Origin: a virus | Lineage: Duplodnaviria; Caudoviricetes | Direction: 5' to 3' (one strand) | Virus record (IMG/VR): IMGVR_UViG_3300021255_002539 | Span: 192,001-256,000 of that record | Length of the DNA stretch: 64,000 bases | Translations under genes and position numbers: made by a program | Shown here: piece by piece, positions 5,429-56,644 of the stretch | How the letters are laid out: each line of letters begins with the position of its first letter | How positions within the stretch are numbered: position 1 is the first letter of the stretch | Notes under the pieces: model-generated | What the model was told of the DNA's origin: nothing | The model's database searches: none | Seen by the model: the letters and a program-made list of their open reading frames with translations, nothing else

Positions 5429-6394
5429 TCACTTTCCATATCTAATGATGGAATCATCGTCAAAAGCATTATCTGAAATTTCTGGGTTTCCGAGGATTCT
5501 GACCTCTTTTAGTTTTTCGCAATCAGCAAATGCAAGAGTTCCAATGTATGTTACACTCTTTGGTACCGTCACGGATGTTAATTCAGGACAGCACTAAAAC
5601 ATCTAACTATGAATCCTTTCTATATTGTTAGATAGTTTAACATTCATTAAACTAGAACATCCAGCAAATTCGGCACATCCCATTTCCATTACACTATTTG
5701 GAATCTTTATGCTCGTAAGGCTACTGCAATCATGAAAAGTATAACCAATAAACTTAATTACACTATCTGGAATTACTACATTTTTCAAATTTTTGCATTT
5801 CTCAAACGCGCACAATCCTATCTCCTCGACCCCATAGGGAATAATCACTTTTTCAAGACTCTCGCAATATCTGAACGCCTCTTGCCCAATGCTTTTTACG
5901 CTGTCAGGAATAATTACTTTGGTGAGACTTTCACAAAGTGCAAATGTACCTTGTCTAATGTATTGTATTCCTGATGGAATCGTTATTTTTTTAAGGCTTT
6001 TGCAACAACAAAACGCCATCCTGCCAATATTTGATACATTGGGTGGTATTTCTACTTTGATGAGATTATTGCAGTCATAAAACGCATAATCTCCGATACT
6101 TTCCACCGAGTCTGGAATTACAACTTTGCTCAAACGGTAGCACTCGTAGAACGCTTTGTTACCAATGGATTTGACTCCGCTTGGAATTACAGCAATTCTT
6201 CTCTTTCCATTATATTTCACCAAAACACCATTGTCAATATCAAATTCACCATCAGACTCGTTAAACTTCAGTATTTTTCCCTTGTCCGTCTTGAACAGAT
6301 TTCCTGATTCGGAGACATATTCAAGCTTGCCGTACTTCTCCGTGAAGTATTGGCTTTTCTGAAAAGCCTCCTTCGTTATGTTCAATTTCTTCAT
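5429..6394 (-). CDS. BspA-type leucine-rich-repeat protein with N-terminal MKKLNITK leader (321 aa, 2 in-frame TAG)
   Basis: IPDSVxSIGxxAFxxCxxL repeats continue past TAGs at 5603 and 5594 (..VTVPKSVTYIGTLAFADCEKL..) to TGA at 5429. GAGG RBS. Confidence 0.85.
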
Positions 6395-6428
6395 TGTTTG
6401 TTTCCTCAATTGGTTATTACTATTTACA

Positions 6429-7379
6429 TTAAACTATCTTCAAGACCTGACCTGGCTTTATCACATCTGACTTGAGGCCGTTGAGCTGCTTTATCTGCTC
6501 GACCTTCTTCATGTTCTTGCCAGCGATGGCATAGAGGGTGTCGCCATCCTTGACAGTGTATTCCTTGGTTTTGGTGGAGGCGACCATTTGTGGCACATGT
6601 GTCTGGTGTGTGGGTTTCTGCAGCTTCTTCCTCAAGTTGCTGGCGTGCCTTGTTTGATCCTTTAGTTCGCCCACGATGTGGTGTCCTACAGTCTCTGGCT
6701 CAATCAACTGGGATGCCCAATACGGACTGCACTTCTTTGGGTTGTAGTATGCGTTCCACTTGTCGTTTTCAGGCGTGTAAGTCCCATCTACTGCCTAAGT
6801 TGCCAGATCAACGCATGTATTCCATAGGTTGTACTCCTTCCCATGTCCTGTTTTCACGCATTTCGGGAACTTTATCTCGTAGGTGGATGGCTGCTTCTCT
6901 GACTTTGGTTTGCCGTTCCAGCACGAGAATTGAGATGGTCTAAGGCATTCCTCAGCCAATTGACTTGCCATTCCACCACCCGCTCTGTTCCAAATCACAG
7001 TCATTGACATATTAAGCCCAGCCTTGCCATCTTCCCTTGCCTCCATGTACAATGTCCTTGCGACTATGTTCAGTATCTGGGATCTCCTCCATCTTCCTAT
7101 CCTGGGATCCTCGACCTTGGACTTCTCCACGGCGTCTGCTATGTCCTGCTTCGTTACAGTCGCCCGTCCTCCTTGCTCAGCCTGCTTGTTAGCCTTTGCC
7201 ACCTTGCCAAGCTCCTGCTTGAATTCTGCCGCATTCACTATTCCAGACGATCCAAGCAGAAACGCCAGTGCCCCAAGTGAAATCAGATTTCCGATTCCCT
7301 CCTGCACAAGCTCTTCGTCGACTATGTTCAAAACGATGTCGTCCAGGTTTTCCTGTGGTTCTATTCTCTTCCAGCCCAT
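6429..7379 (-). CDS. SleB/CwlJ-like cell-wall hydrolase with C-terminal LysM domain (316 aa, 1 in-frame TAG)
   Basis: ARTLYMEAR..VIWNR..QFSCWN core. Readthrough of TAG at 6795 restores the C-terminal half (AYYNPKKCSPYWASQL..VGHH) and joins the LysM domain (YTVKDGDTLYAIA..LNGLKSDVIKPGQVLKI). Confidence 0.85.
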
Positions 7380-7403
7380 TCTCGTAGTATCTCCGTTTTG
7401 CCC

Positions 7404-7435: not shown

Positions 7436-7468
7436 CAATAGAACCAACAACATTACAGGTGAACTACA

Positions 7469-11388: not shown

Positions 11389-11460
11389 TATTTACCATTA
11401 AAAACTTTTTTCAAAAAACTGCAAAACATCCCTCGGTTTTTGTCCGTTTTTGCGTAAATA
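11389..11460. promoter_or_regulatory. Divergent late-type promoters for gp6-like and scaffold/MCP genes
   Basis: TATTTAC at 11389-11395 and GTAAATA at 11454-11460. Confidence 0.7.
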
Positions 11461-11487: not shown

Positions 11488-12558
11488 ATGAAAGTGTCAG
11501 AGACAACGAAGAAGATATACGAAGGGATATCCAACATCCTCAAGGAGAATGGACAGCCCCTCACCAAGGCTCAGGTGTATGCCATCGAGAGCATGGTCGA
11601 GACGGTCGAGGATGCCACCGAGAAGAGGTGTTGCGAGGTCACTGAGGGCATCTTGAAGAAGAAGGACGCATTGATTGCCGAGGCCAACCAGAGGGTGGCC
11701 GCGTGCCAGGGCACTGTTTCTGAAGCCACCATGCAGAAGGTGAACGAGATGGTGGAGAGCAGGATAGCGCAGTTGAAGAAGGACATTCCACAAGTGCTGG
11801 ACTACGCGAAGATGAAGAAGCTCGAGTCCTGCATGGCTACAATCAAGGAATGCGTTGGATACAAGACCGACGAGCAGGTTGAGCGCGTGGCAAACGAGTC
11901 CGCCAAGATGCTCAAGTCCACCAAGTCCCTTATCGAGACACAGGCCAAGACGATTTCTGAGAAGGTTGCTTCGCTTGCTGAGAGTGCTTCGAAGATGAAG
12001 GCACTACAGGAACAGGTGAGGCAGATGAAGCAAACAATAGACGCAAAGGAAAAACAGATAGTCGAAAGCACGAAGACGAACACAGAGCTGGTCAATCAGA
12101 ACCAGAATCTGCAGAAGAAGATAGAGGAAAGCAAGAAGATAACCGAGAGCATAGAGGAAAAAAGAAAGGCAGAGGCATTGAGGTATTATTTGGAGGAAAA
12201 GATATCGAAGTACCCGAAGTACGAGGCAACTCTTCTCAGAAAGCATTTCCAGAACGCCAAGTCCAGGGCAGAGATAGACGAGAACTTCTCCAAGGCACTT
12301 TCGATGGTGCAGGAGAAGCGGGACACGATGAGGACGGTTCAGGCTATACCAGTGGCGAAGGTTCCAGCCACGCAGGTGAACGAGAACAATGGGACCGAAA
12401 AGCAGATTTCAGGTGAAACTATTGTCAAAGAAAGTGGTGGGGCAAACAAAGATGCTTCCCTCTCGATGTATGACGATGGCTTCGTTGAGGTTGAAGCAGA
12501 CTTCGACGAAGACCCAATCAGCAACGAGGAGATGCAGGCGTGGATGTCCCAACTTTGA
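11488..12558 (+). CDS. Prohead core/scaffold protein, T4 gp22-like
   Basis: Coiled-coil protein immediately upstream of the major capsid gene. Carries many x-x-E|S/A/G sites and a C-terminal ..MQAWMSQL helix like gp22. Confidence 0.7.
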   Translation: MKVSETTKKIYEGISNILKENGQPLTKAQVYAIESMVETVEDATEKRCCEVTEGILKKKDALIAEANQRVAACQGTVSEATMQKVNEMVESRIAQLKKDIPQVLDYAKMKKLESCMATIKECVGYKTDEQVERVANESAKMLKSTKSLIETQAKTISEKVASLAESASKMKALQEQVRQMKQTIDAKEKQIVESTKTNTELVNQNQNLQKKIEESKKITESIEEKRKAEALRYYLEEKISKYPKYEATLLRKHFQNAKSRAEIDENFSKALSMVQEKRDTMRTVQAIPVAKVPATQVNENNGTEKQISGETIVKESGGANKDASLSMYDDGFVEVEADFDEDPISNEEMQAWMSQL

Positions 12559-12599: not shown

Positions 12600-14198
12600 A
12601 TGTTCAAGACAAATTCAGAATACCAGAAGAGGTTGCTCAAGCGTTGGGCACCCGTCCTGGAGAAGGGCGCAGCGATCGACTCCGTCGAGAAGAAGCTCGT
12701 CCTGGCGCAGGTTCTCGAGAACACCCGCAAGGAGTTCACGAAGAAGAACCTGTTCACTGAGGCTGCCCCAACTGCAGTCCAGAACACGATAGACAACCGC
12801 GACCCAGCATATCAGGCTCCAATTCAGGGCAAGGGCGTTCTCACTCAGAACGACTACATCCTCCCCAATGTTGTGATGCCAATGCTCCGCCGTATCTTCC
12901 CAACCCTCATGGCTCACGAACTCGTTGGCGTCCAGGCAATGACTGGTCCTACGGGCTATGTGATGGCTCTCCGCGCGATTGCTGCCAACCCAGAGCGTGT
13001 TGGTTTGCCACAGGGCTATGAATTCGGCTATGGCGATCACGGCCGCACGAACCAGAGCGTCTTCACGGGCGACACCGCAGTGAACACGAATGTTCCTGTG
13101 GACTCCACGCAGTCCCTCCAGAACAAGCTCTATGGCGAGAATCCTGCCCTTGACGACATCGGCATGTTCATCAATGGCACTTCCTACTCCGGCCGTGGCG
13201 TTCCTACGGGCCGTGGCGAGGGCTATGCACATGGAACACCTGCGACATACAAGGGACTTGACGGCAAGGATTATCCTTACATGAATGGTGCAGCAGGATA
13301 TGCTGGTGGCTATGCTGGCGATCCCAACAGGGCACTTGACCCAACATTCGGTCACTGGAGGAACAACACCTATCCTCAGGCCACCATCAAGTTCGAGAAG
13401 CGTTTGGTCGCAGCTGAGACGCGCAAGCTCGGCTCCGAGTGGACGCCAGAGGACGCAGAGGACCTTGAGGCAATGCAGGGAATCGACATCGAGACCGAGA
13501 TGACGAACCTCATCTCCTATCAGCTCGGTGCCGAAATCGACCAGCAGATCAAGGAGTCCATGCTCTACGCTGCATGGGGTACCGCAAAGGTTCTCGATGT
13601 CTCCAAGCTCGATGGTTTGGACCAGATGGGTCGTATCGCAGCAATGCTCACAGTCGTGACGCGCGAGGCGAACGAGATCTCCATCAAGACCCGCCGTGGC
13701 GCAGGCAACTTCGTCCTCGCTTCGACGACGGTTTGCTCCTGCCTCCAGCAGCTCGGTACATCCAAGCTCGTGAGCGACGGCAAGACGATGCCTTCCGTCC
13801 CTGCCTCCAGCATTGGCGCAATGACCAAGGAAGGTCTCATCAACGATGGGCGTCAGCTCCTCGTCCGTGACACCAATACCTTCGGTTCCTACGCTCTCGT
13901 TGGCTACAAGGGAACGCAGGCTGGCGATGCGGGCATTATTTATTGTCCGTACATCCCGGTGACGTTGTATAAAGCAATTAAGCCTGAGAATGGTCTCTCG
14001 GTCATCGGTGCCCGTACGCGCTACGGTCTCGTCGACAACCCATTCGATGCTGACAACTACTACAGCCTTATCAAGTTCACAGGTTTTGACCGCGGGTATA
14101 CGCTTGGCAACTCTGAGCGCACCTTCTTCGGAACCGTCGAGGCTGCTGAGGCTTCCGACAGCACGAACTTCAACTTCCGCAGCGGCCTGGTTGGCTAA
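12600..14198 (+). CDS. gp23: Major capsid protein, T4 gp23-like (532 aa)
   Basis: KRWAPVLE, PMLRRIFPTLMAHELVGVQAMTGPTG, RKLGSEWTPEDAEDLEAMQGIDIE, GIIYCPYIP, RTRYGLVDNPF. Strongly biased (highly expressed) codon usage. Probable cleavage at LFTE|AAP. Confidence 0.95.
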   Translation: MFKTNSEYQKRLLKRWAPVLEKGAAIDSVEKKLVLAQVLENTRKEFTKKNLFTEAAPTAVQNTIDNRDPAYQAPIQGKGVLTQNDYILPNVVMPMLRRIFPTLMAHELVGVQAMTGPTGYVMALRAIAANPERVGLPQGYEFGYGDHGRTNQSVFTGDTAVNTNVPVDSTQSLQNKLYGENPALDDIGMFINGTSYSGRGVPTGRGEGYAHGTPATYKGLDGKDYPYMNGAAGYAGGYAGDPNRALDPTFGHWRNNTYPQATIKFEKRLVAAETRKLGSEWTPEDAEDLEAMQGIDIETEMTNLISYQLGAEIDQQIKESMLYAAWGTAKVLDVSKLDGLDQMGRIAAMLTVVTREANEISIKTRRGAGNFVLASTTVCSCLQQLGTSKLVSDGKTMPSVPASSIGAMTKEGLINDGRQLLVRDTNTFGSYALVGYKGTQAGDAGIIYCPYIPVTLYKAIKPENGLSVIGARTRYGLVDNPFDADNYYSLIKFTGFDRGYTLGNSERTFFGTVEAAEASDSTNFNFRSGLVG

Positions 14199-23160: not shown

Positions 23161-23496
23161 ATGAAATGGAGAAAACTGTACAAAGAATCCGAAAATGATT
23201 TCTATGCCACGCATTCAAACAGAGAGATACTGGAAACATTGATGGAAGATATAATGTCTGTCCTTCCATTGAGATACCAGGTTGAGATTATTGGCAATGA
23301 AATCGTGATTCCATTTGACACAACCAGATTTAGATTTAGGGACGTTGATAGTATCAAGATAAGTGACGCGATTCAGGAATTGGTGGATGAGGTTCGGGCA
23401 ATCGTTGACGCTTTCTGCGACATGAATGGAATTGAGAACAGATTCAAGGTGGATAGGTTTTTCGGAGACCCTGGAGTGAGCGTCTCCTTAACATGA
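23161..23496 (+). CDS. Hypothetical protein with MKWRKLYKES leader
   Basis: ORF with GAGG RBS and GTAAATA at 23127. Confidence 0.7.
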   Translation: MKWRKLYKESENDFYATHSNREILETLMEDIMSVLPLRYQVEIIGNEIVIPFDTTRFRFRDVDSIKISDAIQELVDEVRAIVDAFCDMNGIENRFKVDRFFGDPGVSVSLT

Positions 23497-28689: not shown

Positions 28690-28717
28690 GTTTTGTTTCC
28701 TCGTTATTTGTCGAAAA

Positions 28718-41863: not shown

Positions 41864-41912
41864 TGCTGTTTCATGTAAATACTTCTATACAGCCCAAATG
41901 AGGTATAGCAAC

Positions 41913-43229
41913 ATGAAAAGGAATAGACTTTACAAGGAATCTTCAGAAACCCCCGAATTCGTGAATTCGGACAGACTACGCAAGGAAATCAAGGAAGTGC
42001 TGGAGGAGGAGACTTCTGGCTGGGACGGGACGGACGATGATTCCGTGCAGTACATGAAGGATTCTGCGCCAGACTTCATAGACGAGTATGTGGAGGATGT
42101 TGTTGACGATGCTGTGAAGAGCTTCAACGAACTGGTGCATAGGAACGACACCTCTATGTGGGGCAACTTCAAGGACATCAGATACAACTGGGAGGGCTTC
42201 CACAATGAACTTCCACATGGCTGCACTTTGAAGGAAGTTGTTAAGATGATTGATGCTGGCGAGGACAACGAGATTACCAGGGAGTTCAAGAACTGGGCAG
42301 TTGACTGGTATTTCGAGGCATTTGGCACATATAACTTGAAGTACAAGTGGTCGGAATTCATGGGCGAGGTTGCTGCCGACCATGAATACCAGCAGGAAAG
42401 GGATGCTGAGGATGAGGGCGAATACAATGAGTCCTGCAGAAAGATTCATGACAAAAGAAAGGTCGTGAAGGAGAGCTACGAGGTCTCTGATGATCTTGCA
42501 GATAGGTTGAACTCAATTCTGGCAGACGAGTTTCTTGCGGCGGAATTTTACAAGCTTGCTGAGCTTGCGATGAAGGGCAACAAGCAACACAGGCTGTCTG
42601 AGATTGCTGACGAGAATGGCGAGGACGAACTTGAGGATCACTTCAAGAACCTTTCTGAGTGGATGCAGTCCAAGGGAATCAGGGTTGTCACGAACCACGA
42701 CGAGATGCTTGACATCACCAATGGCAGTGTATTTACTGTGGAGGATGGGGATTCCACTTCTGACATCGTTGACAAGTTGATTCAGTCTGAGGAAGAGGCT
42801 ATTGAGGCATACGAAAACCTGATTCCTGACACTGACTTGGATTTGCGCGTCATGCTTTGTGGTTTCTTGAAGGACGAGCGGGAGCATCTAAAGGCATTGA
42901 CTGACGCAAAGGACGAGATGGGTGGTGGCAGCAGGTACGATGGCGAGGACAAGCCAAAGCACACCATATACGAGGGTGGACGAATGTCAAGGCATGAAGT
43001 TGAGCCAAACTACGAGGTATACAAGGCAGTTGACATTCAATGGGATGTTGACGATGAAGAGGATTTGGATGAACTTCCGACAGAAATGGAGGTTGAAGTT
43101 CCAAGGGATGTCATACGCGATGGCGAGGAAGCTGTGGAGGAATATGTTTCAGATGCAATTACTGATGAAACTGGATTCTGCCACAATGGCTTCTACTTGA
43201 GGGAGTTTTCCAAGCCTGTGAGGAGATGA
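41913..43229 (+). CDS. Multi-module protein with MKRNRLYKES leader and central ferritin-like domain (438 aa)
   Basis: LADEFLAAEFY..DELEDH..SEEEAIEAY..DEREH di-iron four-helix-bundle pattern at about 42474-42920. Late promoter at 41875. Confidence 0.75.
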   Translation: MKRNRLYKESSETPEFVNSDRLRKEIKEVLEEETSGWDGTDDDSVQYMKDSAPDFIDEYVEDVVDDAVKSFNELVHRNDTSMWGNFKDIRYNWEGFHNELPHGCTLKEVVKMIDAGEDNEITREFKNWAVDWYFEAFGTYNLKYKWSEFMGEVAADHEYQQERDAEDEGEYNESCRKIHDKRKVVKESYEVSDDLADRLNSILADEFLAAEFYKLAELAMKGNKQHRLSEIADENGEDELEDHFKNLSEWMQSKGIRVVTNHDEMLDITNGSVFTVEDGDSTSDIVDKLIQSEEEAIEAYENLIPDTDLDLRVMLCGFLKDEREHLKALTDAKDEMGGGSRYDGEDKPKHTIYEGGRMSRHEVEPNYEVYKAVDIQWDVDDEEDLDELPTEMEVEVPRDVIRDGEEAVEEYVSDAITDETGFCHNGFYLREFSKPVRR

Positions 43230-43358
43230 TATGCCAAGATTGGGTGATTCAATGGAGGATTTCTGAAGGTTTTTTGTAAATAATGATTGAACATTCGATG
43301 TGAGAGGACTAGTCCATAAGATTGTTCAAAAACAAACTACTCTATAGAGGAAACTACA

Positions 43359-44387
43359 ATGAAGAAACTAAACATTACGAAGAAGCAGTACGACGAGAGC
43401 AAGTACTTCACGAAGAAGTATGGTGCCATCAAGTTCGTATCTGAATCTGGCAAGCACTTCAAGACCGACAAGGGTGTTGTCCTGGCTCTGGAGGGCACTG
43501 AGGAACCAATGAAGGAAGATGGCGACAGCATCATGGACCGCCAGCTGGACGACAACCAGGAAGCTGACAAGAAGGAGGGTGGCGACAACGAGGGTGACAT
43601 CACCCGCGGCGAACTCACTGACATGCTCAAGGATGTCGTGAAGGAAGTCGAGAAGGTTTGCGACGAGCAGGACATTTCCTTTGAGGATGTTGCTGGCATC
43701 GAGAAGCCCGAGGGTGAGTCCGACGAGGAAGCCGACAAGGACGAGGTGGTTGCCACCAAGGACGAGGTTGCAGAGGTTCTCGCTGGGGTCATTGACACGG
43801 TCGAGAAGGTTGCTGACCAGAACGACATCGAACTCCCTGAGGAGGACGAGGAAGCCGATGGTGAGGATGGTGATGGTGATGCTGGCGATGAGAAGAAGGA
43901 CGATGGCGAAGATGAAGTCACCGTCGACGAGGGTTGCGACTGTGGCAAGAAGGATTGCCCAGAGTGTAATCCAGACAAGAAGCCAGCCACCGAGGGTTGT
44001 GAGGATGGCAAGTGCTGCCCAACTTGTGGTGCTCCAATGAAGAAGGAGTGTGGTCCCGCATGCGAGTGTGGCGACAACAAGCCTGACAAGTTCATGGAGG
44101 CCCGCAAGTCCCGTAGGGCGAAGCTTGTCCGTGAGGCAATCCGTCGTCGCCGTGCTCAGAAGGTGCGCGAGAGCATCGCCCGTCGGGCCAAGGTCCGCAA
44201 GGTTCTTGAGAGCATCCGCAAGCGTCGGCTCGCCAAGAAGGTGATGGAGAGCATTCGCCGTCGCCGTGCGATGAAGAAGGTGATGGAATCCCGCAAGGCC
44301 CGTGTTCTCGCAGCACGCAAGGACCGCAAGGTGATGGAGTCCGTCCGCGCCCGCCGTGCGGCCCGCATGCGCCGTCTGGCCAAGTAA
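43359..44387 (+). CDS. Putative abundant head-core protein: MKKLNITK leader, acidic repeats, Cys clusters, Arg-rich C-terminal repeats
   Basis: 342 aa. Codon bias like the MCP (CGC/CGT, GCT, AAG). Late promoter at 43276. Confidence 0.75.
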   Translation: MKKLNITKKQYDESKYFTKKYGAIKFVSESGKHFKTDKGVVLALEGTEEPMKEDGDSIMDRQLDDNQEADKKEGGDNEGDITRGELTDMLKDVVKEVEKVCDEQDISFEDVAGIEKPEGESDEEADKDEVVATKDEVAEVLAGVIDTVEKVADQNDIELPEEDEEADGEDGDGDAGDEKKDDGEDEVTVDEGCDCGKKDCPECNPDKKPATEGCEDGKCCPTCGAPMKKECGPACECGDNKPDKFMEARKSRRAKLVREAIRRRRAQKVRESIARRAKVRKVLESIRKRRLAKKVMESIRRRRAMKKVMESRKARVLAARKDRKVMESVRARRAARMRRLAK

Positions 44388-44450: not shown

Positions 44451-44519
44451 GTGTTGATGTTCTGAAATCCCAAAAGAATGGTAAATACCACATAGACAAT
44501 TCAGGGAACATAGACACAG

Positions 44520-47500
44520 ATGAACACATCATTGACAAGACCACAGTCCCTTTAGGAACTATACAAGACATACTTCGCCTTTGCGAACAAGTTTCAGTTC
44601 ACTGCCCTTCTGAGGAACTACATTCAGAACGAGGAATGGAAGGACAAGAGCCAGGAGAGGGTATGGTCGTTGATTTCGAGGATATCGGACGATCTTGGGG
44701 CAGTCTTCACGGACGACATCGTGAACTATACGCGCAATGTCGTGGATGTGAACACCTGCAAGGTTCCTCAGTTCCTGGAGCAGTGCAAGATGTTGTCCTA
44801 CAATCTGGAGCACATCAAGAACTCGTATGGGTTCTTCCCCAAGCAGATACAGTGCCTGGTGGACTTGTTCTCTGTGAACCCAGAGTATCTGATTGGCAAC
44901 TCCAGCAACCACATCCTCTCTGACCAGGTAATCAAGGAGATATTGGTGTACATCAAGGATAATGCCACATCTACTGTGACATTCACGAACCAGGATGTTG
45001 TGGACAGGCTGATTGACGATCCGCATGGACTGGTCGATGGCGACAACTACTACAACTTCGTCGTGTCGCTTTTCTACACTACATTGGTGGAGGCGTTGTC
45101 GGCGAAGTACTCAGACGAGGATGGTCAGCCAATCGTGTTCAACTTGTTGTGGTGGGAGATGTAGAACAGGGACATCATACTGGACAACTTGAAGGGCTAC
45201 AAGTCCTGGGTGGACAGGTACATCTCCAACGAGATTGAGCATCCCCTGAACGACCAAGGTCTACAGAACACGATATGGAGCACGGTCCAGGCGGTCAAGA
45301 ATCAGAAGAAGATGTCCCCAAGGTTCAACCCATTCAAGTTGGCAGACGAAATCTACTTCAATGGCTTGAACCCCACCAACAAGCTGACTTAGGACGAATT
45401 GGATCTCATTGGGACTGTGCTTGACTACCACGCGAGGACGAAGTACAACTATCAGGAGTAGTAGTTCTCGGACGACCAAAGCACGCAATTCGCCTACTAC
45501 CGAGAGCTTGAGTTTTGTGGATATGTGAAGATGGTGATGTTCGTCCTGAACAACTTGAACAGCTTTGACTTGTCCAACTTGTCCTACGATGTCCCCACCA
45601 ACAAGTTCATACAATATGGCACGGACGATTGCCTGAAGGTGGCTTAGATATTCAACGATGGTGAGGGGCATTTGGTGCAGATGCCAAATGGGGATGTCGC
45701 CTTGAACCACAAGGATGTCGTGTTGAGGGTGGCGAAGTTCCTGGCAAACTATGTCTTCCACATACAGCATCTGAGGGAGAACGCGAAGACGATTGCCTGC
45801 AAGCATGCGATGAGGGGTACTGCTGGGTTGCTCGCGCATGTTGTGAACGACTATCTGGTGAAGGAATTGCCATCTGTGAGGGACAACTTGCTTCAGGGCT
45901 CTGATGTGGACATTCGGTTCCAATGGGAGATTCAGCCAGACAAGTTCCTCAACTATGGCAATGTGAAGGTATTGGAGTACATGGACGACAACGAGTACTT
46001 CAACATAGACCCAATAGAGGATGTGAGGTTCACCGAGAGGACGAACGCGAGGTATTGGGAGAAGTTGTCGGAGATTGGCTATGACGAGTCTCTTGGCGCA
46101 TTGACGAAGCGCGAGATACACGACCTATACGCCAATGTACTTGGAATTGGGAAGCTTCAGCCAGACAGGGAGAGTTCGTTTGACGATGTTCAGGACTTCC
46201 TGGTGGACTTGTTCAAGATTGGCGCGAACCCAGTGAAGTGGGACTTCGGTGATGGGGACTTCATGAATCCAATAGACTACGATCCATTGAGGGATGCGGT
46301 CTACGATGTCGAGGGCAAGTATGGCTACACAAAGGCCGAGAGGATGAAGGTTCAGACCAACACGGGGCTGAGGAAGAACCAGGAGGCGCAGTTCCTGGAG
46401 TATAGTGGTCAGAATCTGGAGGACGATGCCATACAGGGCATATACGACTACATGAACAACCAGTTGTTCTATTGGAAGAACACCGACTACTCGTCCCATG
46501 TCCTGCACCCGTTCATGTACAACCTCAAGTTGTGGAACCGCCTGGACAACATCATAGTCAACGGCTATAGGGACTACATCAACAACGACCTGGTGAAGCA
46601 CATGTCCTCCAAGGTGAAGTTCGACGAGTTGGTTGGGGAGTTTGGCGAGTGCAGAAGGTTCTGGAAGTACAATGTGGTGGACATGACAGGCTACACCACC
46701 AGATACGAGGCTGCCGTGAAGGACGAACACAAGGACGACGCCAACAAGACGACGAGCCAATTGACTGGGTACGATGGGTTGTTCTACCCAGACGCAGCAT
46801 TGGAGTTCCTTCGGATATACGCAGACGAGAGGTCAACATCGACAGGAGAGAGGTTCCAGATTCCAACTTGGTTCTTCGTCAACCCACAGGATCTTCTGGA
46901 TTCGCAGAAGACCGAATTGTTGGAATACTTCAAGTCCCACGCATTCATCAGAGCGATACACTCAATCTACTGGCAATTGTCTGGTGGGGTGCCCAATTTC
47001 GCGGAGTATGCGGTGAGCCGATTCTACCTTGATTGGTACTCGCACCTCAACTACACGAGGGCTGAGTATCAGAAGATTGCTATGCAGTTGTGGTATTGGC
47101 GGGACAGGGTCAAGGAGCTGATTCAGACCGAGTACCCAATCAAGAAGTACTGTCTGGACATCCAAGGCAACTCCCTGTTGTTGGTATCCACATTCGGTCC
47201 GGACGAGGTGGATTCGAACAGATTTCTGATAGACCTGCAAATCGAGCAGAACAGGGTGCAGACAGAGGCGAATGGCAACTTGAACATCCATGTGCCATTC
47301 TGCGAGGACAAGCTCGTGCAGCCCAGTGAGATGTGGGTGAGGTGGAAGTCAAACCCAATCGCTTTCCCAGCATTCGACATAGAGTGGAACCAGAAGACTG
47401 GCGACCAGCAATTCGACTTGAACTTCAGAAAGGACGACGACAACACCGAGATGGGGCAGTTGACCCACGCCAACAACGACTGCAACGACGACTTCCATGT

Positions 47501-50500
47501 GGTGATTGAGGACTGGCTGGCGAAGTATGGGGACAAGATCAATTGGGAGAGGGGTGGCTCAAACAGGCTGCCGGTGTTCTTCGACATGGAGCAATCTGCG
47601 AATGTGTTGGCGTTGGCGTCCTGGCACACATTCCAGAGGAAGGTGGATGGGGTGGCCGAACTGGACGAACTCGGAAACCCAATGTACGAGACCCTTTGTG
47701 GAAAGAACCCGCTTCACATATTCTCGGTGGAGAGGACAAGCACATCCACATTGGAGTACAATTGGACGAAGTACATCCAGTCAAACGACAAGATCTTCGC
47801 AGAGGATTACCTCAAGGGAATGCTTTTCGACGCATACCACTATTGCCCCGCGAATGGAACGCTTATGGTGCCACTCTACAGATTCACCTGTTCAGATTCA
47901 GATGACTAGGGGGACATCCACGGGCAGAAGGTGGATATCAACATGTGGTTCATTCCTGCGCAAATACTCAAAGACGACAGGTTCGTGGCGCAAAGGCGGA
48001 TATTCATGGATCGACCATCCAACTCTCCCTTGGACTTGAACCAGCTTCTGGATGCTGGGTAGAACGCAAGCAGGTTCCTGTTCGATCACCCAGTGAAGGT
48101 GTGCAGGAACACCAACCTCGTTTTCTCGCCATATGAGGACCAGAATGGGATGAACAAGGTGAAGTGCGCGTTCCTGGGCGTGTATATGGACAAGACGCCA
48201 GATCTGAAGAAGGACAACCACAACATCAAGTCGATATCCTTCAATACTGGCAATGGAGCCACCAGATACGAATACGACTCGCAATCTCCACTTGACCTTG
48301 GGTTGGTGAAGAACGGGTACTACATGCAGAACGACATCGCTGACATATACGAAGGTACTGATCCAGACTGCTGGCCAGATGGCGATTTCAGAAAGCGCAG
48401 GTACATCGACCAGGGGATATCGAGGGAATGCTTCAACTCATACGACTCCAACGACAAGTATGTGTTCGTCTTGGAATTTCAGCAATCTGTGGACAACGCC
48501 ATTCTGTTCAACAACTCCAGTGACCTCCCGATGGCATATGCCTACAACATACTGTCGGATGCTGGCTACATCCCCCACTTCGCGTACCAATCCCTCGTGA
48601 AGTACAAGGGCGATGTCGATGGAACAGCATATACATGGGAGAGCAAGTACTTGTCTGGCAAGGATCACCTTCAGTTCGAGTTGCTGGGTCTGGACGACAA
48701 GCAGATTCCATTGGCCTACGAGAACATGGAGAGGATGATCGTTGAGGACACCACAGACGATTGCCGCACCATAGTGAACCCAGCCAAGTTGATGGAGGAC
48801 ATCTACCGAGTGTGGTGCGAGACCAAGGGAGTGAAGTAGAACCCAGAGGACCAGTACGAGTCCTACTTCGAGAACGAGTACAAGGGATACGACAACCCAG
48901 AACTGGAGTTTGACGACGACAACGAGGCTGTTTGGGACGACACCGAGGACTTTGAGCTGACATTGCCATAGTTGAACGACCCATACGCATACGACAATCC
49001 AGATGTGTTCAGAAGGTTGCTTGACGAGTACTACATCACAGTGGTCCGGACAGACAATGGGGAGTTGGCGAACGAGAGGAAGTACATTCTGCCCCCAACC
49101 AGCATATCCGAACTTCTGTTCAACAACGACGCCTCCACCAACGATGGCTATGTGAGGTGTTCTGGGTTGGTGGAATACGCAGATCCAACGGTTCAGGACA
49201 ACCACTATGTCCCAGAGCAAGTCGTGTTCACGGGCACCCAAAACCCCTTCGCCTACGACCAGGAGGGCAATCGGGTGTACTCCAAGTCAGAACTGCTCCA
49301 ATATGGCAATGGCATTAGGGGCGTGGACGACATCTATGTTGGATTCGACATCAGAACTGAGGATGGCGAGGAACCAATTCGGGACAAGCAAGGCAACATA
49401 GTGTCCGAAGAAGAGGTAGTGGCGGGGCGGATAGTGGTGAATGTGCATACCAGACCGGTTCAACACAAGTTCATCAGACCAATCGTCAAGTTCAAGAAGT
49501 CCCTTAGACCATTGGATGCCAAGAACCCAAGCTTGGTTGACAGGTTGCACAACGAGCAGAACATTATACCTGCTGGCTCAATTAGGGTGATACTCTCGCA
49601 CAGAAACATGGACAACCTGGCGAAGTACCACATCCTCAACACATCGTCCAACCTCTACTTCAATGGCTCCTTGCCAAAGAATGGATTGAACCAGTTCAAG
49701 TACTCAGACTTCAAGTTCTCCAAGACCGTGCATCTTGAGCAAACCGATGATGGGTGGAAGTCCACGGAGAATGACGCCAAGGGCAATCCAGTACTGGAAT
49801 TCACCAACGAACAGATTTCTGGCCAGATTCCACCATATTCGGTTTCCATCAACAAGGGCAAGGTTGCTGAATTGTGGTATCTTGAACAAGATGGCATTCA
49901 AGGCGATGGCGAACATCAAATAGAACCAGGAAGAAGGGGATTTGACCACTTCCAGGAGAATGGACCAACCTATCCAATCCCAGATGTTGGTGGATTCAAG
50001 TGGGCGCATCTGGCGAAGGAAGTGCCACTCAGATACCTCGACTACCTCTATATCAAGCGCGGAAGGCTGTCCTTCAAGATAAGCGAGGAATCCGAGTCCT
50101 TCACAGACTTGATGTCCAGGCTGCCATCCTTCCACATAGACGATGAATTGAGGAACAAGATGGCGGATTTGAACGATGTGCAGATCCTCAAGGACTACTC
50201 CACATTCGTCCACCAAAGCGAGAACCCAGAGGTTGTCCGAGCATGCGGCAGCTTCAATCCACTGTTGGTGAACTCGATTGTGCGTCCTGGCGTGAAGTAG
50301 ATGGAGACCCATAGGTATCTGCTCAAGGAGAATCAGAGTTCAGATGGCATCTTCCAATTGGACGAGAATGGACACCCAATCGAGATAGGCGACGATGGCA
50401 AACCACTTAGGTACGACGAAGATGGCAATGTACTCAATCCACTGCCAATCGAGGTGATTTGCGCCAACGAAGGAGGTGAGCCGAACACCATGATTGAACT

Positions 50501-51728
50501 CAGCACAGGGAATACAGCAATCCCCCTCATGCTCCAGTTCGAGGATGGAGAGCTTGACGACTACCTCAAGATATACGCCAACTATGTCAGGGTTCAGGAC
50601 AAGCACGGGGACTTCCACTACGATCTCTACTTCAACATCCAGAACCTGTTCAACTCCCCATTCGAGTACATATCCACCGTGACGAAGCAACCCAATGTGC
50701 TGGTCATCCCAGACTCCTACCTCTACTTGACTGGCGACAAGTACACCGACCAAGGAGACCACAACGAGGTTGACGCCGACAAGATGAAGGTCATCAAGGA
50801 TGGTGGGGAGCTGTCCATATATGGGCAGGTCAAGACATATTCTGATTGCTTGCTCTCTGACGCCAAGACAATCAAGATGTTCACATACAGGATATACAAC
50901 ATCTCTGACGACAAGCCCAAGTTCCTCATCCAGAAGACCTTTGACATCACCAAGTCCTCCCTCAGGAACAATATTGAGAGGAAGGTGGAGGTGAAGTTCT
51001 CGGATGTGCTGTGGACGATTGACGAGAACCAGTTTGAGTTTGCAGATGCCAACCTCAAGGACGATTTCAGAATACTGAACCAGGATGTTGTCGTTGTCCA
51101 ACCAATCCACATCAACTGCCATTGGGACAAGGACGACGACTCCAGGGTACGGACGCTATCCTTCGACATCATGCACGACACCATAGACTTCGCCAATGTC
51201 CCTGCGCTGGGTCCATATTGGATGCAGGCCAGGACATTGAACTGCGAGGTGATGTAGACAGAGGATGTTGGCGACAAGGTGTTCAAGAAGCCCTACTACG
51301 ACCATTGGTCTGACTCGAACATGAGGTTGGTTGTTGACGAGAACACTGGAATCCCCAGGCTCACATTGACCTTCAACGACGATGCTGACTTCAACTTCGA
51401 GACCATATACCTGAAGTGGGTTCTGCCAAAGGGCTGCAGGATAATGGACAGCATCGACAGAATGGGTGGGTATGTGTTCAGTTCCACGCCTATGAACATA
51501 GTCGCCGACTGTGGAAATGCTGCCGTCGTTCCCCAGATTGAGACTTCCACTGGACACATAGTGGCTCGGGTCAAGAGACCAGACAGAATGTACCTCGGGC
51601 TGGAACATTCCTCCACCCAGAGGATGAATGGGTATGTCATATCGAACTTGGCAGAGGAAATTCACAAGGCATTGGTGAGGGGCGAGAGGAACCCAACACT
51701 TGAAGGAACAGACAGAAATGGAGGTTGA
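44520..51728 (+). CDS. Giant virion structural protein (2402 aa, 12 in-frame TAG); possibly baseplate wedge gp7-like
   Basis: ORFs 44670-45164, 45189-45392, 45672-47909, 48093-48839, 48972-50300, 50301-51257 and 51279-51728 all share one frame. The gaps contain only TAG (44553, 45162, 45390, 45459, 45462, 45645, 47907, 48060, 48837, 48969, 50298, 51255). LRENAKTIACKHAMRGT resembles the KGT motif of gp7/P2-gpI wedge proteins (weak). Late promoter at 44481. Confidence 0.75.
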
Positions 51729-52420
51729 TGCAAATGGCTGACATGGAACTATTGAACAAGTCGATGATCAAGAAGTACAAGCTCGACGACACCATACTTG
51801 AGTCGTACTTCAAGGACGAGAAGAACCACAATGTCTCTGGCATGACATTCCCATTGAGGATTGACAACAGACAATATTGCTCCCCAACTGACTATCAGGG
51901 GTCGAAGCCATCGTGTTGTGGGTACTCCACCGCACAGATACTCGAATCCCTCAATTGGATACGGACTGGGAAGATTGTGCAGATGGATGCCGACCAAATC
52001 TACGCAAAGTGCAAGGAAGTGGACAAGCAGATGGGTCAAGGCGGCACATACCCCGACCTGGCGATGGCAAAGGGACTTGAATTGGCGAAGGGGATGAAGA
52101 GCAAGTACGAGGTGAAGACATCCACAAAACGGGAGATTGACATCCTGAAGAGGGCAATCCACCAGAACATGTTCGTCTCTGTGAACATGATCGTGACAAA
52201 GGACATATACGACCTGGATGGGAACAACTTCGTCTACCAGGGCAATGGGGCGAAGGCTGGTGGACATTCCCTCGTCTGCTGTGGATACGACGACCCCTCC
52301 CAAATGGTGATTCTGCAGAACCATTGGGGCGTGGATTGGGGGTTGAAGGGCTTTTTCCTCTGCCCATATGACGTTTGGAAAAAGCAGTGCAACATCTTTT
52401 GTTGGTACGAGAGAATTTGA
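51728..52420 (+). CDS. Papain-like (C1) cysteine peptidase
   Basis: YQGSKPSCCGY (Gln/Cys), GGHSLVCCGYDD (His), LQNHWGVDWGLKGF (Asn). TGATG overlap with the giant gene. Confidence 0.85.
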   Translation: MQMADMELLNKSMIKKYKLDDTILESYFKDEKNHNVSGMTFPLRIDNRQYCSPTDYQGSKPSCCGYSTAQILESLNWIRTGKIVQMDADQIYAKCKEVDKQMGQGGTYPDLAMAKGLELAKGMKSKYEVKTSTKREIDILKRAIHQNMFVSVNMIVTKDIYDLDGNNFVYQGNGAKAGGHSLVCCGYDDPSQMVILQNHWGVDWGLKGFFLCPYDVWKKQCNIFCWYERI

Positions 52421-52477
52421 TGTTATAATTGTAAATAGATGCGAACATAACCAATTTCAACAAAAAGGTAAACAGAA

Positions 52478-55400
52478 ATGAGAATCGTAATTGACAAGGA
52501 CATACCTGAAATCCAACTCCTGCAGGAATCCTGGGAGAAAAGCAAGCCAACCTACAAGGTAGTTGCTGTAAACGAATGCGACAGGTTCGTATATGCCAAG
52601 GACTTGAAGAAGATTGACGAAGCCACTGATTCTGCGTTGGACATGGCGTGGGACAAGACATTCGATGATTGTTCGGCGCAAATTGTTGAGACAAAGAATG
52701 GGAAGGATGCCACAATATGGTCTTCTGATGGGAAGCTTGTTGTTTCCGAGGGGGTCTTTGGGGACCTGGTCAGGGGGCTGTCTTCTGGAATGCAAAAGGC
52801 GTTGAATGGATTGAGCAAGGCGTTCAAGAAGGTCAAGGATGGAATAGCCAAATTGGGCAATGAGGTTCTGAATGGTCTTCGTGGGGCAGACTACATCAAC
52901 AAGAACAACGACATGACTGGTGTTGGCTACAAGGCGATGACCAAGCAGATGACAGTTGACGAGAACGAAGTCAAGAACTTGAAGGAGTATTGGAAGGTTT
53001 TGTGTACTGGGGTGAAGCAAGTAGTTGACCAGACGAAGCAATACCAACCAGTGGATGTCAAGAACATAAGTGGCGTGATAATGAACAGCGACAAGGATCC
53101 AATCCAACTCAAGGTCGATGTTGTCACTGCCGAGGGAGGGGAATCCCAATCCCTTTTGTTGACGCAGAATGGAGATGCGAAGCCCGAGGCTGGAGAAGGC
53201 AAAGATGATGGAGACGACGCTGCAGGAAATGGCGATGGTGCTGGAAATCCTGGTGGAGCGAAGCCCCTTGCTGGTGTGACACCTGAGCAAGCCAGGAAAG
53301 CCGCGACGGACAACCCCGAGCAGGTTGTGCCAACCCTCGCCCAACAAGTCACCCAGAACACCCAGGACATAGCTGGATTGAAGGAGAAGATGGCAAAGGT
53401 CGCAGAATCCACTCAGAGCTGGAACTTCAACAACGAGGTTCAGACCAACAAGGCTGGTCTTGAGCGTCTGGCAATCAAGCGGTTCTTCAACGAGATGAAC
53501 GACCCAGCAGTGAAGGAAATCAAGTTCGTTTCTGAATCTGGTCAGGTGAGGACATACTACACCAATTCTGGATCCTCGGCATATGCTGCGTTCAAGAAGG
53601 ACTTCAGGGAATCCACGGCGAAGTGCGAGAAGGCCGCCAACTTGGTTGGCTACAAGGTGACATTTGAGTCCGCAAACTCCAGAAGCCACTTGAATGGCTA
53701 CAAGTTCTCGGACTTCGGAATGGACGACGACTTCGATTCCACTTCCAAGACAATCGTCATCAAGGAGAGCGTCACTAGGGTATCTCCTAACGGAGATAAT
53801 AGCAAGGAGACATCTACTACCAAGAAGGAAGAGGTGGTGAAGGAATCGACAGACGATGTTGATGCCAGATTCTCGACAACCACGGTTGACGCGAAGACAC
53901 CATCTGCGAACCCAGAACCAAGTGGTTTCACGCTTGAAGTTGGGGAGTTGAACCCCGAGGACGAAGTGAAGTCCCTGTTGGCTTCCATGAACAAGTACGA
54001 TGTTGTCAAGCCAACCGACATCCAGGATGGTTCAATCTCAGATGGGGTGACGACATATCCAGATGCTGAGGTTGTTCAGGAGGCAGAAGGAGACGAGGAA
54101 GGTGGTGGTGACGACGCAGGAGGAGATGATGCTGGAGGAGAGGACGCCGATCCATTTGCTGATGGTGGAGGAGGAGACGACGCGGGTGGGGACGCAGACC
54201 CATTCGCAGGCGATGCGGGTGGCGATGACGCTGGTGGAGATGCTGGTGGAGGAGAAGATGCCGACCCATTCGCTGATGGAACAGGAGATGACGCTGGCGG
54301 CGATGCTGGTGGAGCCACAGGTGGGGATGCAGGTGGTGGAGACGCCCCTGCCGATGCTGGTGAAGGCGATGTAGCATCAGACCCCAATTCCCCAGAGGGA
54401 GAACCTGCCCCAGAATCCCCTGTGAACACAGACGCCCAGGGTGAGCCAAAGTCTCAGTACAACATCAATGTCACTGAGCCATTCAACGTCAACGACGACT
54501 TCTCCCTGAACGAGGAAGAGCAGAAGGAGTTCTTCGGCAAGATTGACCAGTTGGTGAAGATTCCCGACATGGACAACTACTCCCTTTACCTCTATCAGAT
54601 TACTCCAGAGAACATGAACCTCGATGATGTCCACTACATCCAGGCACTCTACGAGCTGTCTGTGAAGTTGGGCTTGCTTGAGGATGTCTATGCCGATTCC
54701 AACTTGCTTGAGAAGTACAACTCCTACAAGTACTCCGTTGTGAAGGATGGTGAGAACAAGGATGGCGAGGACTTCAAGGTTCAGGAGCAGAAGAACCCAA
54801 TTTGGGGCAACAAGGTGATGCTTGAAGAAGCCAAGGATAACAACAAGAAGCCCCGTGGCATCTCAAAGGTCCAGGACGACAATGAGGACAAGAACAAGTG
54901 GGTGAAGGACAACTCGAAGGAGGATCTTGAGAACAAGAAGCAGGACGACAGAAGGGGTCCGAAGTGGACGAAGCTCGACAAGGACCAGAACGGCGCCGAC
55001 AAGCCCATCGTCATAGACGCAGCAAAGGAGGCATGGGATTCTGTCAATGGAAAGAAGGATGGCAAGGATGACAAGGAAGACGCCGACAAGAAGCTCCTGG
55101 ATGGAACTTCCGAGGGTCAGTTCCACGGACTTGGTTGGTTGGTGACATTCAAGGCAATGCAGTTCGGCTCCCCCAGATACCTCACCCTCTACATCAAGAG
55201 GAATGGTAACGACAAGGCCGAGAAGCAATGCGAGGACTACCTCAAGAGACTGTCGTACACCGAGATTGAGTTCGTGAACATAGACGAGGTTGACCCCTAC
55301 GAGTATGTATACAGGTCTTGCTCTGGAATGAAGACCCCCGAGCAGGTTAGGACAGAGAAGTACGCGAACGAGGCAGTCCCAGTGACATACCTCGAAAGCA

Positions 55401-56140
55401 CCGACAAGAAGGTGACTGTTGGGGACTTCATCTACACCCCAGCCGACACTTTTGGTGGAAATGGATGGAACACAGTGCTTGCGCAGGTAGTGGAGGTCGA
55501 TGGGGACAAGTTCACAGCCAAGGCCGTAGATTCCACTGGAAATAAGTCATGGCAACTTGAGGTTGTTGGAAAGATGAAGGAGATGCGCGGCAATTCCACA
55601 TATGGCAAGACAACTGAAGCAGAGTTCAGGGAACTGAAGAACAGCGAGTTGGCAAGGGAAAGCGCCGAGACGAAGGTTCCTGAGTCAATCCCAGGGGACA
55701 TCAAGCGCGACATCAAGCGCGTCATCACAAAGCTGAATGCTGAAATCAGGGGAACCAAGCAGTTCAACTTCCTCAAGGAGTGTGGGGTGGAGAAGCCACA
55801 GATCGACCACCTTCAGTTCCTCGCAGGATACAAGACTGCGCAGGTGAACGAGACATTGAGCGAGACGACCTACAAGTTCATCTTCAAGAAGGACGATTCG
55901 ACCTTCTCGCGGATGTTCTACTCCAACCTCAAGGAGAAGTTGTTCAAGTACCTGGGGAGCTTCGCCCAAAAGTTCAACCTGGAATGTGGCTGCGAAGTGA
56001 AGCCAACCATGATTTGCATCGACTTCATGAGGAGCGATCTTGGCAACCCAACCTACGACCTGGACACGATGATTGTCGAACCAGATAAGCCAGAAGTCCC
56101 AACATTGGATCAGGCGATGGAGATTGCGAAAGACATGTAA
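52478..56140 (+). CDS. Large acidic multi-module protein with GGDDAGG low-complexity tract (putative internal head protein, 1220 aa)
   Basis: Late promoter at 52431. Many x-x-E|S/A/G sites. Internal IKFVSESG motif shared with the MKKLNITK leader. Confidence 0.7.
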   Translation: MRIVIDKDIPEIQLLQESWEKSKPTYKVVAVNECDRFVYAKDLKKIDEATDSALDMAWDKTFDDCSAQIVETKNGKDATIWSSDGKLVVSEGVFGDLVRGLSSGMQKALNGLSKAFKKVKDGIAKLGNEVLNGLRGADYINKNNDMTGVGYKAMTKQMTVDENEVKNLKEYWKVLCTGVKQVVDQTKQYQPVDVKNISGVIMNSDKDPIQLKVDVVTAEGGESQSLLLTQNGDAKPEAGEGKDDGDDAAGNGDGAGNPGGAKPLAGVTPEQARKAATDNPEQVVPTLAQQVTQNTQDIAGLKEKMAKVAESTQSWNFNNEVQTNKAGLERLAIKRFFNEMNDPAVKEIKFVSESGQVRTYYTNSGSSAYAAFKKDFRESTAKCEKAANLVGYKVTFESANSRSHLNGYKFSDFGMDDDFDSTSKTIVIKESVTRVSPNGDNSKETSTTKKEEVVKESTDDVDARFSTTTVDAKTPSANPEPSGFTLEVGELNPEDEVKSLLASMNKYDVVKPTDIQDGSISDGVTTYPDAEVVQEAEGDEEGGGDDAGGDDAGGEDADPFADGGGGDDAGGDADPFAGDAGGDDAGGDAGGGEDADPFADGTGDDAGGDAGGATGGDAGGGDAPADAGEGDVASDPNSPEGEPAPESPVNTDAQGEPKSQYNINVTEPFNVNDDFSLNEEEQKEFFGKIDQLVKIPDMDNYSLYLYQITPENMNLDDVHYIQALYELSVKLGLLEDVYADSNLLEKYNSYKYSVVKDGENKDGEDFKVQEQKNPIWGNKVMLEEAKDNNKKPRGISKVQDDNEDKNKWVKDNSKEDLENKKQDDRRGPKWTKLDKDQNGADKPIVIDAAKEAWDSVNGKKDGKDDKEDADKKLLDGTSEGQFHGLGWLVTFKAMQFGSPRYLTLYIKRNGNDKAEKQCEDYLKRLSYTEIEFVNIDEVDPYEYVYRSCSGMKTPEQVRTEKYANEAVPVTYLESTDKKVTVGDFIYTPADTFGGNGWNTVLAQVVEVDGDKFTAKAVDSTGNKSWQLEVVGKMKEMRGNSTYGKTTEAEFRELKNSELARESAETKVPESIPGDIKRDIKRVITKLNAEIRGTKQFNFLKECGVEKPQIDHLQFLAGYKTAQVNETLSETTYKFIFKKDDSTFSRMFYSNLKEKLFKYLGSFAQKFNLECGCEVKPTMICIDFMRSDLGNPTYDLDTMIVEPDKPEVPTLDQAMEIAKDM
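54085..54375 (+). repeat. Low-complexity coding repeats GGDDAGG / ADPFAD(G)
   Basis: Seen directly in the translation of 52478-56140. Confidence 0.85.
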
Positions 56141-56158
56141 TCAACGAGGAAACAAAAC

Positions 56159-56644
56159 ATGAAGAAACTAAACATAACGAAGGAACAGTTCGAAAAGTCC
56201 AATTACTTCAAGAACAAGTATGGCAATCTTGAATATGTGTCGGAGAGCGGCAAAGTATTCAAGACGAACAAAGGCAAAATGCTGATGTTCAAGGAAGATT
56301 CATAGGGATTGCGTAGCGATGAAAAGAAGAAATGGACATGGTGGGGAAGTTCCGACGATGCCACTTATAATGATGCCCCCAGTTCTGATTATGAACAAGG
56401 CGATATAGATTGGTGTCCTGAAGGAGGATGGGAAGATAGAGAGGATGCGTGGTATTCAATGTTGGCAGTAGTTACAGATATAATTAGCCAAGAGACTACT
56501 GGTGTTGATTTACGGAACGATGTCTATGATGATGTCAAATAGGGTCATAGGTCAGCGGAGCTCGACATAGATCATGATGCTGGAACAGTTGAAGCCAATA
56601 TAAATGGCGACCACTATGAATGGTGGCTTGCGGAAGAACGATGA
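56159..56644 (+). CDS. Acidic Trp-rich protein with MKKLNITK leader (161 aa, 2 in-frame TAG)
   Basis: ATG 56159 after GAGGAAACAAAAC. TAG at 56303 and 56540. Ends TGA 56642-56644. Only partly present in the ORF track. Confidence 0.8.

Follow-up and report, generated by a model that had tools for sequence, protein, structure and literature searches.

What do four scattered genes of one phage have in common if they begin with closely related peptides of 47 residues and then continue into unrelated proteins? This question is raised by a stretch of 64,000 nucleotides (the window), which represents bases 192001-256000 of the 414,060-bp virus record IMGVR_UViG_3300021255_002539, a genome with direct terminal repeats that is rated complete. 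In the original prediction the shared N-terminal peptide (the leader) was described as an address label that recruits different domains (the cargoes) into the prohead. The analysis presented here favours, at somewhat better than even chances, the view that the leader is a long, folded capsid-targeting propeptide which would be cut by the head protease after packaging, as a variant of the T4 internal-protein system. The computational part of the prediction, namely the copies, the unrelated cargoes, the head genes, and the Glu at the junction, was borne out, while packaging, cleavage, and delivery are what we infer from it.

The phage reads TAG as Gln, its large genes being open only when TAG encodes an amino acid, and all translations were made with this assignment. 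When read in this way all four predicted leader genes were recovered, and the pairwise protein identity of their leaders was 56-85%. The genome-wide set of open reading frames (ORFs) comprised 429 calls, and a profile search of the whole genome revealed nine leader genes, four in the window and five outside of it. Among these copies the mean leader identity is 73% for amino acids, 72% for nucleotides, and 53% for third codon positions, and upstream of the ATG it is 58% over 20 bases and 38% over 60 bases. The ratio of nonsynonymous to synonymous substitutions (dN/dS) of the leader is about 0.115 with a dS of about 2 (Nei-Gojobori counting), i.e., synonymous sites are saturated and the sequence is under purifying selection. 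Thus the copies are old, and it is selection that holds the protein sequence, not recent copying.

The exhaustive profile search covering 1.84 billion representative proteins resulted in 376 protein clusters matching the leader, including 354 with E<1e-10, and every match was an unnamed metagenomic protein. The largest contigs bearing leader homologues are 414-433 kb long, and two related complete genomes of 418 and 434 kb contain 9 and 6 leader copies, respectively, so that the expectation of many copies both in this phage and in its relatives was justified. The phage is placed as a rumen-type phage of 414 kb whose relatives form a clade of rumen megaphages. When one genome for each of 185,579 prokaryote species was searched, a single match was obtained in a 10-kb contig of a rumen metagenome-assembled genome, which is probably phage DNA. 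The leader was not found in deposited phage genomes by DNA and protein searches, a search for longer cargoes that started from the divergent leader of gene 43359-44387 returned 3 proteins only, and the literature searched contained no description of this 47-residue module.

In 123 of the best 150 matches the module starts at residue 1, and Met1 is retained in all 150; the remaining 27 carry upstream extensions yet keep Met at leader position 1, which indicates either gene-calling artefacts or an upstream frame that enters the leader gene without a stop. The second arrangement is exemplified by the locus at genome 96800-97510 (+), where a 114-residue upstream ORF runs in frame and without a stop into a leader gene bearing its own ribosome-binding site (RBS). 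The same arrangement is present in a database relative with 94% identity, and two products may come from such a locus, a fusion protein and a leader protein on its own.

The abrupt end of similarity at an x-x-E site, noticed in the four window genes, proved to be a general property of the family. In the alignment of 150 database homologues the column entropy stays below 1.8 bits at positions 1-47 and jumps to 3.7-4.1 bits from position 48. Phe44 is present in 150/150 homologues and Glu46 in 136/150, and position 47 is occupied by Ser in 105, Gly in 16, and Ala in 5 of them; 11 homologues have Val at position 45 (F-V-K-E-S), which resembles a one-residue insertion. The leader therefore ends with hydrophobic-x-Glu (F-x-E followed by S, G, or A), which matches the site of T4-type proteases at the motif level only.

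Behind this boundary the cargoes are unrelated, as had been claimed: there was no pairwise BLAST match with E<0.4, and no homologous downstream regions were seen in any cargo pair. In this genome they vary from 57 to 415 residues and differ in composition and predicted fold class, including an LRR_5 domain, several small acidic domains, a zinc-ribbon protein, a protein of 462 residues with Gly/Ala-rich and membrane-like segments, and an acidic/Cys-rich/Arg-rich protein. Among the four window cargoes a Pfam family was assigned only to cargo 1, a BspA-type leucine-rich repeat (LRR) domain (LRR_5/BspA), whose high AT content was also reproduced: its GC content is 36.5% as compared with 48.3% in the genome, which puts it at the 1.5th percentile of windows of this size. 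Directly after a tail-fibre gene, at window 31906-33354 (+), there is another BspA-type LRR gene, which contains 10 TAG codons in frame; it is leaderless and 45% identical to cargo 1. The C-terminal domain of cargo 2 is modelled with confidence above 90, and a fold search with the cargo 2 AlphaFold model, aimed at its function, gave no match.

Cargo 3 ends with an array (window 44091-44384) in which each unit closes with Val/Ile/Met-x-Glu followed by Ser or Ala, the sites lying from 44091 to 44331. Its orthologues in both related complete genomes contain 6-8 units that vary in number and sequence. Judged by its sequence, cargo 3 looks like a precursor of short basic peptides, similar to protamines, that might be released by cleavage for use inside the capsid. 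In the comparison of the three complete genomes, conservation was limited to the Arg-rich protein (43359-44387) and the protein of 462 residues, the two with the most divergent leaders, and all other cargoes differed. In the set of 150 homologues only five had any Pfam match, weak and mostly to zinc ribbons. Clustering at E<1e-3 distributed 145 cargoes into 50 single-linkage groups, one of which holds 81. Since cargo domains recur in this way, the cargoes represent shuffled modules and not 150 unique inventions.

The structure of the leader was modelled by AlphaFold2 with an alignment of 76 sequences, and the model, with a mean predicted local distance difference test score (pLDDT) of 86.5, represents a compact domain over residues 2-44 that consists of a strand (2-4), two helices (8-13 and 15-21), and three further strands (24-27, 33-36, and 41-44). 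Past residue 45 the confidence drops to about 50, as in a disordered linker. In the full-length model of the 27985-28689 product the leader folds alike, and pLDDT falls below 50 at residues 49-60 and 115-125, so that both F-K-E-S and the internal L-K-E-S border on flexible linkers. The leader is basic, with an isoelectric point (pI) of 9.9. Accordingly, the original idea of a much longer T4-like address label holds for the length of 47 residues, but the leader is predicted to be a folded mini-domain and not merely a longer linear signal.

A match to a known stand-alone domain would have spoken against a leader, and no significant one was obtained. Pfam gave no match, PHROGs gave only weak repeated matches (E 0.01-0.04) to the N-terminus of a ScpB-like family, the PDB sequence search and the Foldseek search of the model against PDB and BFVD remained at E>0.05 and E>0.1, respectively, and ESM Atlas returned no usable match. 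The best hit of VIA-align among 48,161 chains (Z 2.9) was one half of a glyoxalase fold and was not significant. By eye, and from the weak ScpB-like PHROG match, a DNA-binding domain of AbrB/MazE-like or winged-helix type had seemed possible, but it was rejected, as neither profile nor fold searches supported it.

The V-S-E-S-G motif of the leader forms the loop joining the second and third strands of the model, a predicted hairpin loop, and if the model is right it may be kept for structural reasons; cleavage within the leader at V-S-E is possible as well, the motif alone being behind it. An internal copy of IKFVSESG had been reported in the 1220-residue protein encoded at 52478-56140. The 8-residue identity with the leader of gene 43359-44387 is real, but a full leader copy was rejected, since a profile without the motif gives 7.4 bits over 17 residues (E 0.085 in the 429 ORFs). 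What this protein contains is a hairpin-sized partial leader motif only.

The T4-type head and the gp21-like protease, both expected if the leader is removed in the manner of T4, are present. The window encodes a T4 gp23-like major capsid protein, a baseplate wedge protein, tail-fibre proteins, a DNA polymerase, and a helicase, and the gp21-like protease of the Peptidase_S77 family is encoded elsewhere in the genome. This family (PF03420) is above the cut-off in three relatives too, and the relatives have the gp23-like capsid protein together with the S77 protease. The gene directly before the capsid gene encodes a coiled-coil protein without a family match, for which position and composition suggest a scaffold role. 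The PDB chain of T4 gp23 comprises 521 residues in full length and 456 in the mature form, which corresponds to a cut after Glu65 in L-T-E|A. In the capsid protein of this phage the candidate maturation site is L-F-T-E|A-A-P at Glu54, which is invariant in three genomes and followed by a variable stretch; Phe at the third position before the cut is common to capsid L-F-T-E and leader F-K-E|S. The correspondence of L-F-T-E with the T4 site is plausible, not proven.

The RBS travels with the leader. The RBS motif GAGGAAAC was found directly before all four window leader starts, in agreement with the shared RBS originally noted, and 16 bases before the ATG are identical between the genes starting at 28689 and 56159. 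Of its six occurrences in the window four directly precede leader start codons; genome-wide the exact 8-mer precedes 3 of 429 ORF calls, some of which misplace the starts of leader genes. The heptamer GTAAATA precedes six of the nine leader genes at a distance of 10-80 bases and is also located upstream of the scaffold-like gene, the gene of the 1220-residue protein, and a tail-fibre gene; it was not found before the polymerase and helicase genes. Over the whole genome 65 of its 118 occurrences are intergenic, although intergenic sequence accounts for 7.2% of the genome, and it stands 10-50 bases before many large, late-looking genes. GTAAATA is likely to be a late promoter element of T4 type. 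TAG codons are present in three of the four window leader genes (5429-6394, 27985-28689, and 56159-56644), and from the upstream GTAAATA together with these codons the leader genes are read as late-expressed.

The C-terminal domain of the 27985-28689 protein shows that leaders are interchangeable. It recurs in 24 proteins and in several settings. In some it directly adjoins the 47-residue leader, in others it stands behind a basic linker of about 12 residues or behind other cargo domains, and in proteins which go on to a ferritin domain it is preceded by short basic leaders (5-14 residues); in 22 of the 24, E-S is situated 6-8 residues upstream of it. The occurrence of the same cargo behind long and short leaders means that different leaders can serve one cargo and that x-x-E-S marks module junctions, and the finding of T4-like short leaders before it supports the packaging role proposed for the long one. 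Two database proteins join two cargoes by means of a leader remnant that consists of the loop motif and the L-K-F-K-E-S end only. The basic linker of about 12 residues, which contains two Lys-Phe pairs and the end K-E-S, recurs after the leader or between cargo modules with E-S on both sides; judging from its sequence it resembles the leader tail and may be a minimal protease recognition element.

Several late genes of this phage start with a short basic peptide of about 8-10 residues ending in Y-K-E-S, V-S-E-S, or N-E-S. They are mostly located behind GTAAATA motifs, and the size of the peptide resembles that of the T4 capsid-targeting sequence; the N-terminal enrichment is modest (about 8 observed and 3 expected). 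A ferritin-like protein (PF00210, E 8.5e-10) is encoded at window 41898-43229 (+) with a short basic leader and V-V-K-E-S just before the ferritin domain, and relatives fuse the C-terminal domain of the 27985-28689 protein to ferritin. This ferritin may be packaged, which would be reminiscent of encapsulin cargo.

Taken together, these data are consistent with the following course of events, in which docking, cleavage, packaging, and injection are the steps we infer. The RBS and the leader constitute a portable cassette. Late in infection the leader-bearing proteins would dock into the assembling T4-type prohead core via the folded basic domain, and the gp21-like S77 head protease would cut after Glu46 at F-x-E followed by S, G, or A, with a second cut possible in the V-S-E-S-G loop. 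The freed cargo would stay inside the head and exit with the DNA at the next infection. Two cargoes are old and conserved, and the others turn over between relatives, as would be expected of an injected accessory or anti-defence repertoire.

Several facts weigh against this course of events. Hydrophobic-x-Glu is a loose motif, and the E-S that precedes the shared cargo domain could be part of the conserved N-terminus of this very domain. In the HMMER alignment the T4 cleavage site is placed 8 residues downstream of the capsid L-F-T-E, in a poorly conserved region. Short T4-like leaders appear to be present in the same genome, which leaves the need for a folded domain of 47 residues unexplained. 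Most cargoes are acidic, with a median pI of 4.5, whereas T4 internal proteins are basic. Finally, as judged from its sequence, the leaderless LRR gene beside the tail-fibre gene suits a surface role equally well as an internal one.

The surface role can be extended to the whole family: the module would be an uncleaved virion-docking domain that anchors varied display domains outside the particle, by capsid decoration or fibre attachment, and provides a changeable adhesive surface. Late expression of the leader genes, the predicted fold of the leader (as expected for an anchor), and the adhesin-like BspA-type LRR cargo, whose closest relative in the genome adjoins a tail-fibre gene, would all agree with it. 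We consider it decidedly unlikely, because a permanently attached anchor hardly explains the conservation of Glu46 in a disordered linker past the fold, the conserved members (the Arg-rich array protein and the protein with membrane-like segments) are unlikely surface decorations, and the same cargo stands behind leaders of 5-14 residues, too short for an anchor domain. An intracellular adaptor is likewise unlikely; here the leader would bind a shared partner of the phage or the host (a protease, a chaperone, DNA, or a compartment), the variable C-termini would bind targets, and nothing would be packaged. Such a role would suit a strongly conserved domain of pI 9.9 fused to small binding-type domains (LRR, zinc ribbons) and a papain-like peptidase gene in the same late gene block, and the repeated ScpB-like PHROG match (E 0.01-0.04) could be taken as its trace. 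However, these PHROG matches are not independent and lie below any threshold, and structure searches recovered no winged-helix or DNA-binding fold. Given the late promoter motifs and the TAG codons, the proteins are unlikely to act as early counter-defence factors unless they are packaged; the junction rules, like the link to short leaders, are in keeping with a processing protease.

It is very improbable that the conserved stretch serves expression or recombination, as a translation-initiation cassette or a cassette-swapping site. The RBS motif does travel with the leader, and the partial leader remnants at two-cargo junctions are what recombination within the leader would leave, but the protein is conserved at 73% with third positions at 53% and dN/dS of 0.115, and a confident domain fold is predicted; recombination may well move the cassettes, yet it leaves the protein-level constraint unexplained. 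Hardly credible is the explanation by ordinary paralogues with C-termini diverged beyond recognition. It would account for a shared N-terminus with nothing beyond, but not for cargoes of 57-415 residues that differ in composition and fold class with none alike, for conservation that falls from near-identity to random within one residue, and for the same cargo domains recurring behind different N-termini.

The reading of the leader as a capsid-targeting propeptide may be taken further, at a little below even chances: the module would be a universal plug-in capsid-loading tag of the rumen megaphage clade, a folded 5-kDa domain with a junction rule (basic residues followed by hydrophobic-x-Glu|Ser) that is read by the protease. 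Hundreds of injected effectors would be recognisable by sequence alone, with one conserved member being a precursor of Arg-rich peptides that condense the DNA inside the head. If the reading is correct, the entire repertoire of injected proteins in an uncultured clade of 400-kb phages can be identified by one profile of 47 residues, and hundreds of small family-less proteins become prime candidates for new counter-defence functions. It would also mean that a folded, strictly conserved domain can serve capsid targeting besides a short peptide, it would supply a definite tag, together with a protease site, that could be tested for the loading of foreign proteins into large capsids, and the junction rule would aid the reading of the many polyprotein-like genes of this genome. 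The coordinates of the features are collected in Table 1.

Table 1. Coordinates of the leader module, its cargoes, and associated features (window positions unless marked as genome).
Feature	Position	Strand	Basis or remark
Leader gene	5429-6394	-	Translation with TAG as Gln
Leader gene	27985-28689	-	Translation with TAG as Gln
Leader gene	43359-44387	+	Translation with TAG as Gln
Leader gene	56159-56644	+	Translation with TAG as Gln
47-residue leader of gene 5429-6394	6254-6394	-	Profile match, E 1e-28, whole-genome search
47-residue leader of gene 27985-28689	28549-28689	-	Profile match; AlphaFold pLDDT 86-91 at residues 1-44 of the full-length model
47-residue leader of gene 43359-44387	43359-43499	+	Profile match; divergent type, end A-L-E-G
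47-residue leader of gene 56159-56644	56159-56299	+	Profile match
Five leader genes outside the window	genome 518, 97142, 100326, 176444, 178225	+, +, +, -, -	Whole-genome profile search
Cargo 1: BspA-type LRR domain, two in-frame TAG codons, AT-rich	5429-6253	-	Pfam LRR_5, E 4e-69
Cargo 2: two small domains, one TAG codon; second domain after internal M-L-K-E-S linker	27985-28548	-	AlphaFold model
Cargo 3: acidic region, Cys-rich segment, C-terminal array of ~12-residue Arg-rich units	43500-44387	+	Sequence
Cargo 4: small acidic, Trp-rich domain, two TAG codons	56300-56644	+	No Pfam/PHROG family
Partial leader-like motif (strand-loop-strand part only) in 1220-residue protein 52478-56140	53516-53572	+	8-residue identity with leader of gene 43359-44387
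Basic Lys-Phe-pair linker	genome 176046-176444	-	Also in database homologues P0017, P0054, P0237, P0248, and others
T4 gp23-like major capsid protein	12600-14198	+	Pfam Gp23 (PF07068), E 5e-71; aligns to T4 gp23
Coiled-coil, scaffold-like protein directly before capsid gene	11488-12558	+	GTAAATA upstream
gp21-like head protease (Peptidase_S77, PF03420)	genome 349663-350115 (outside window)		Above Pfam cut-off
GAGGAAAC ribosome-binding motif of cassette	6400-6407, 28695-28702, 43347-43354, 56146-56153	-, -, +, +	Motif search
GTAAATA late-promoter-like motif before LRR leader gene	6421-6427	-	
GTAAATA late-promoter-like motif before gene 43359-44387	43276-43282	+	
Further GTAAATA window sites	11454-11460, 30547-30553, 52431-52437	+, +, +	
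Short-leader genes, window	20188-21831, 21864-22394, 23161-23496, 41913-43229	+, +, +, +	
Short-leader genes, genome	genome 184351-184869, 49410-50552	-, -	

Between the third and fourth leader genes of the window an ORF of 2416 residues with 14 in-frame TAG codons and no PHROG/Pfam match is located at 44478-51728 (+). Behind it, at 51728-52420 (+), a papain-like peptidase of 230 residues (Peptidase_C1, E 1.8e-10) is encoded, and next comes the 1220-residue protein, which is acidic and of low complexity.

Among known systems the closest likeness is to the internal head proteins of T4 and other T-even phages. Those of T4 join the prohead core via a capsid-targeting sequence of 10-20 residues that is removed by gp21 (PMC5694885). 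T4 Alt is cut at I-T-E and L-T-E (PMC5694885), and Ip1-3, which share the N-terminal leader only, are injected and inhibit different GmrSD restriction enzymes (PMC12373910, PMC3012670). Both systems consist of unrelated proteins with only an N-terminal leader in common, the leader ends with hydrophobic-x-Glu, the gene set varies between related phages, and the gp23-type capsid and the gp21-type protease, which in T4 cuts after Glu, have homologous genes here. However, the module was not filed in the T4 leader family because a short linear leader (10-20 residues) defines that family, and the leader described here is a predicted folded domain of 47 residues. Known from its sequence, it is kept far more strictly than the leader of T4 and far more strictly than its own cargoes, which comprise hundreds of types and are mostly acidic.

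In giant phages (SPN3US, phiKZ, and 201phi2-1) propeptides of 20-254 residues have several cleavage sites after Glu with Ser preferred at the first position behind the cut, and they probably serve the same purpose as the T4 capsid-targeting sequence; the paralogues gp53/gp54 have an identical N-terminus with the rest diverged, the cleavage motif is A-x-E or S-x-E, and the protease is assigned to family S80 (PMC5694885, PMC10052503). The length of the leader and its shared N-terminus would fit this pattern, and a second candidate site lies in the V-S-E-S-G loop, but no homology to those proteins was found, nor was one looked for; the giant-phage propeptides are carried by few paralogous core proteins, whereas the module is portable and joined to unrelated cargoes. 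The Dar anti-restriction proteins of phage P1 are counter-defence proteins that are taken into the head as it assembles and reach the host together with the DNA (PMC9024508, PMC12810830). They share with the role proposed here the packaging of accessory counter-defence proteins in the head, but no such portable leader domain was found described for them and the capsid lineage differs.

Outside of these phages, encapsulin cargo-loading peptides provide a short, usually C-terminal address for an HK97-fold shell, and in MuF-type polymorphic phage toxins a large conserved N-terminal domain is joined to varied cargo for the phage head. Neither is known to resemble the leader in sequence; both have in common with it the principle of a conserved address or domain joined to varied cargo.

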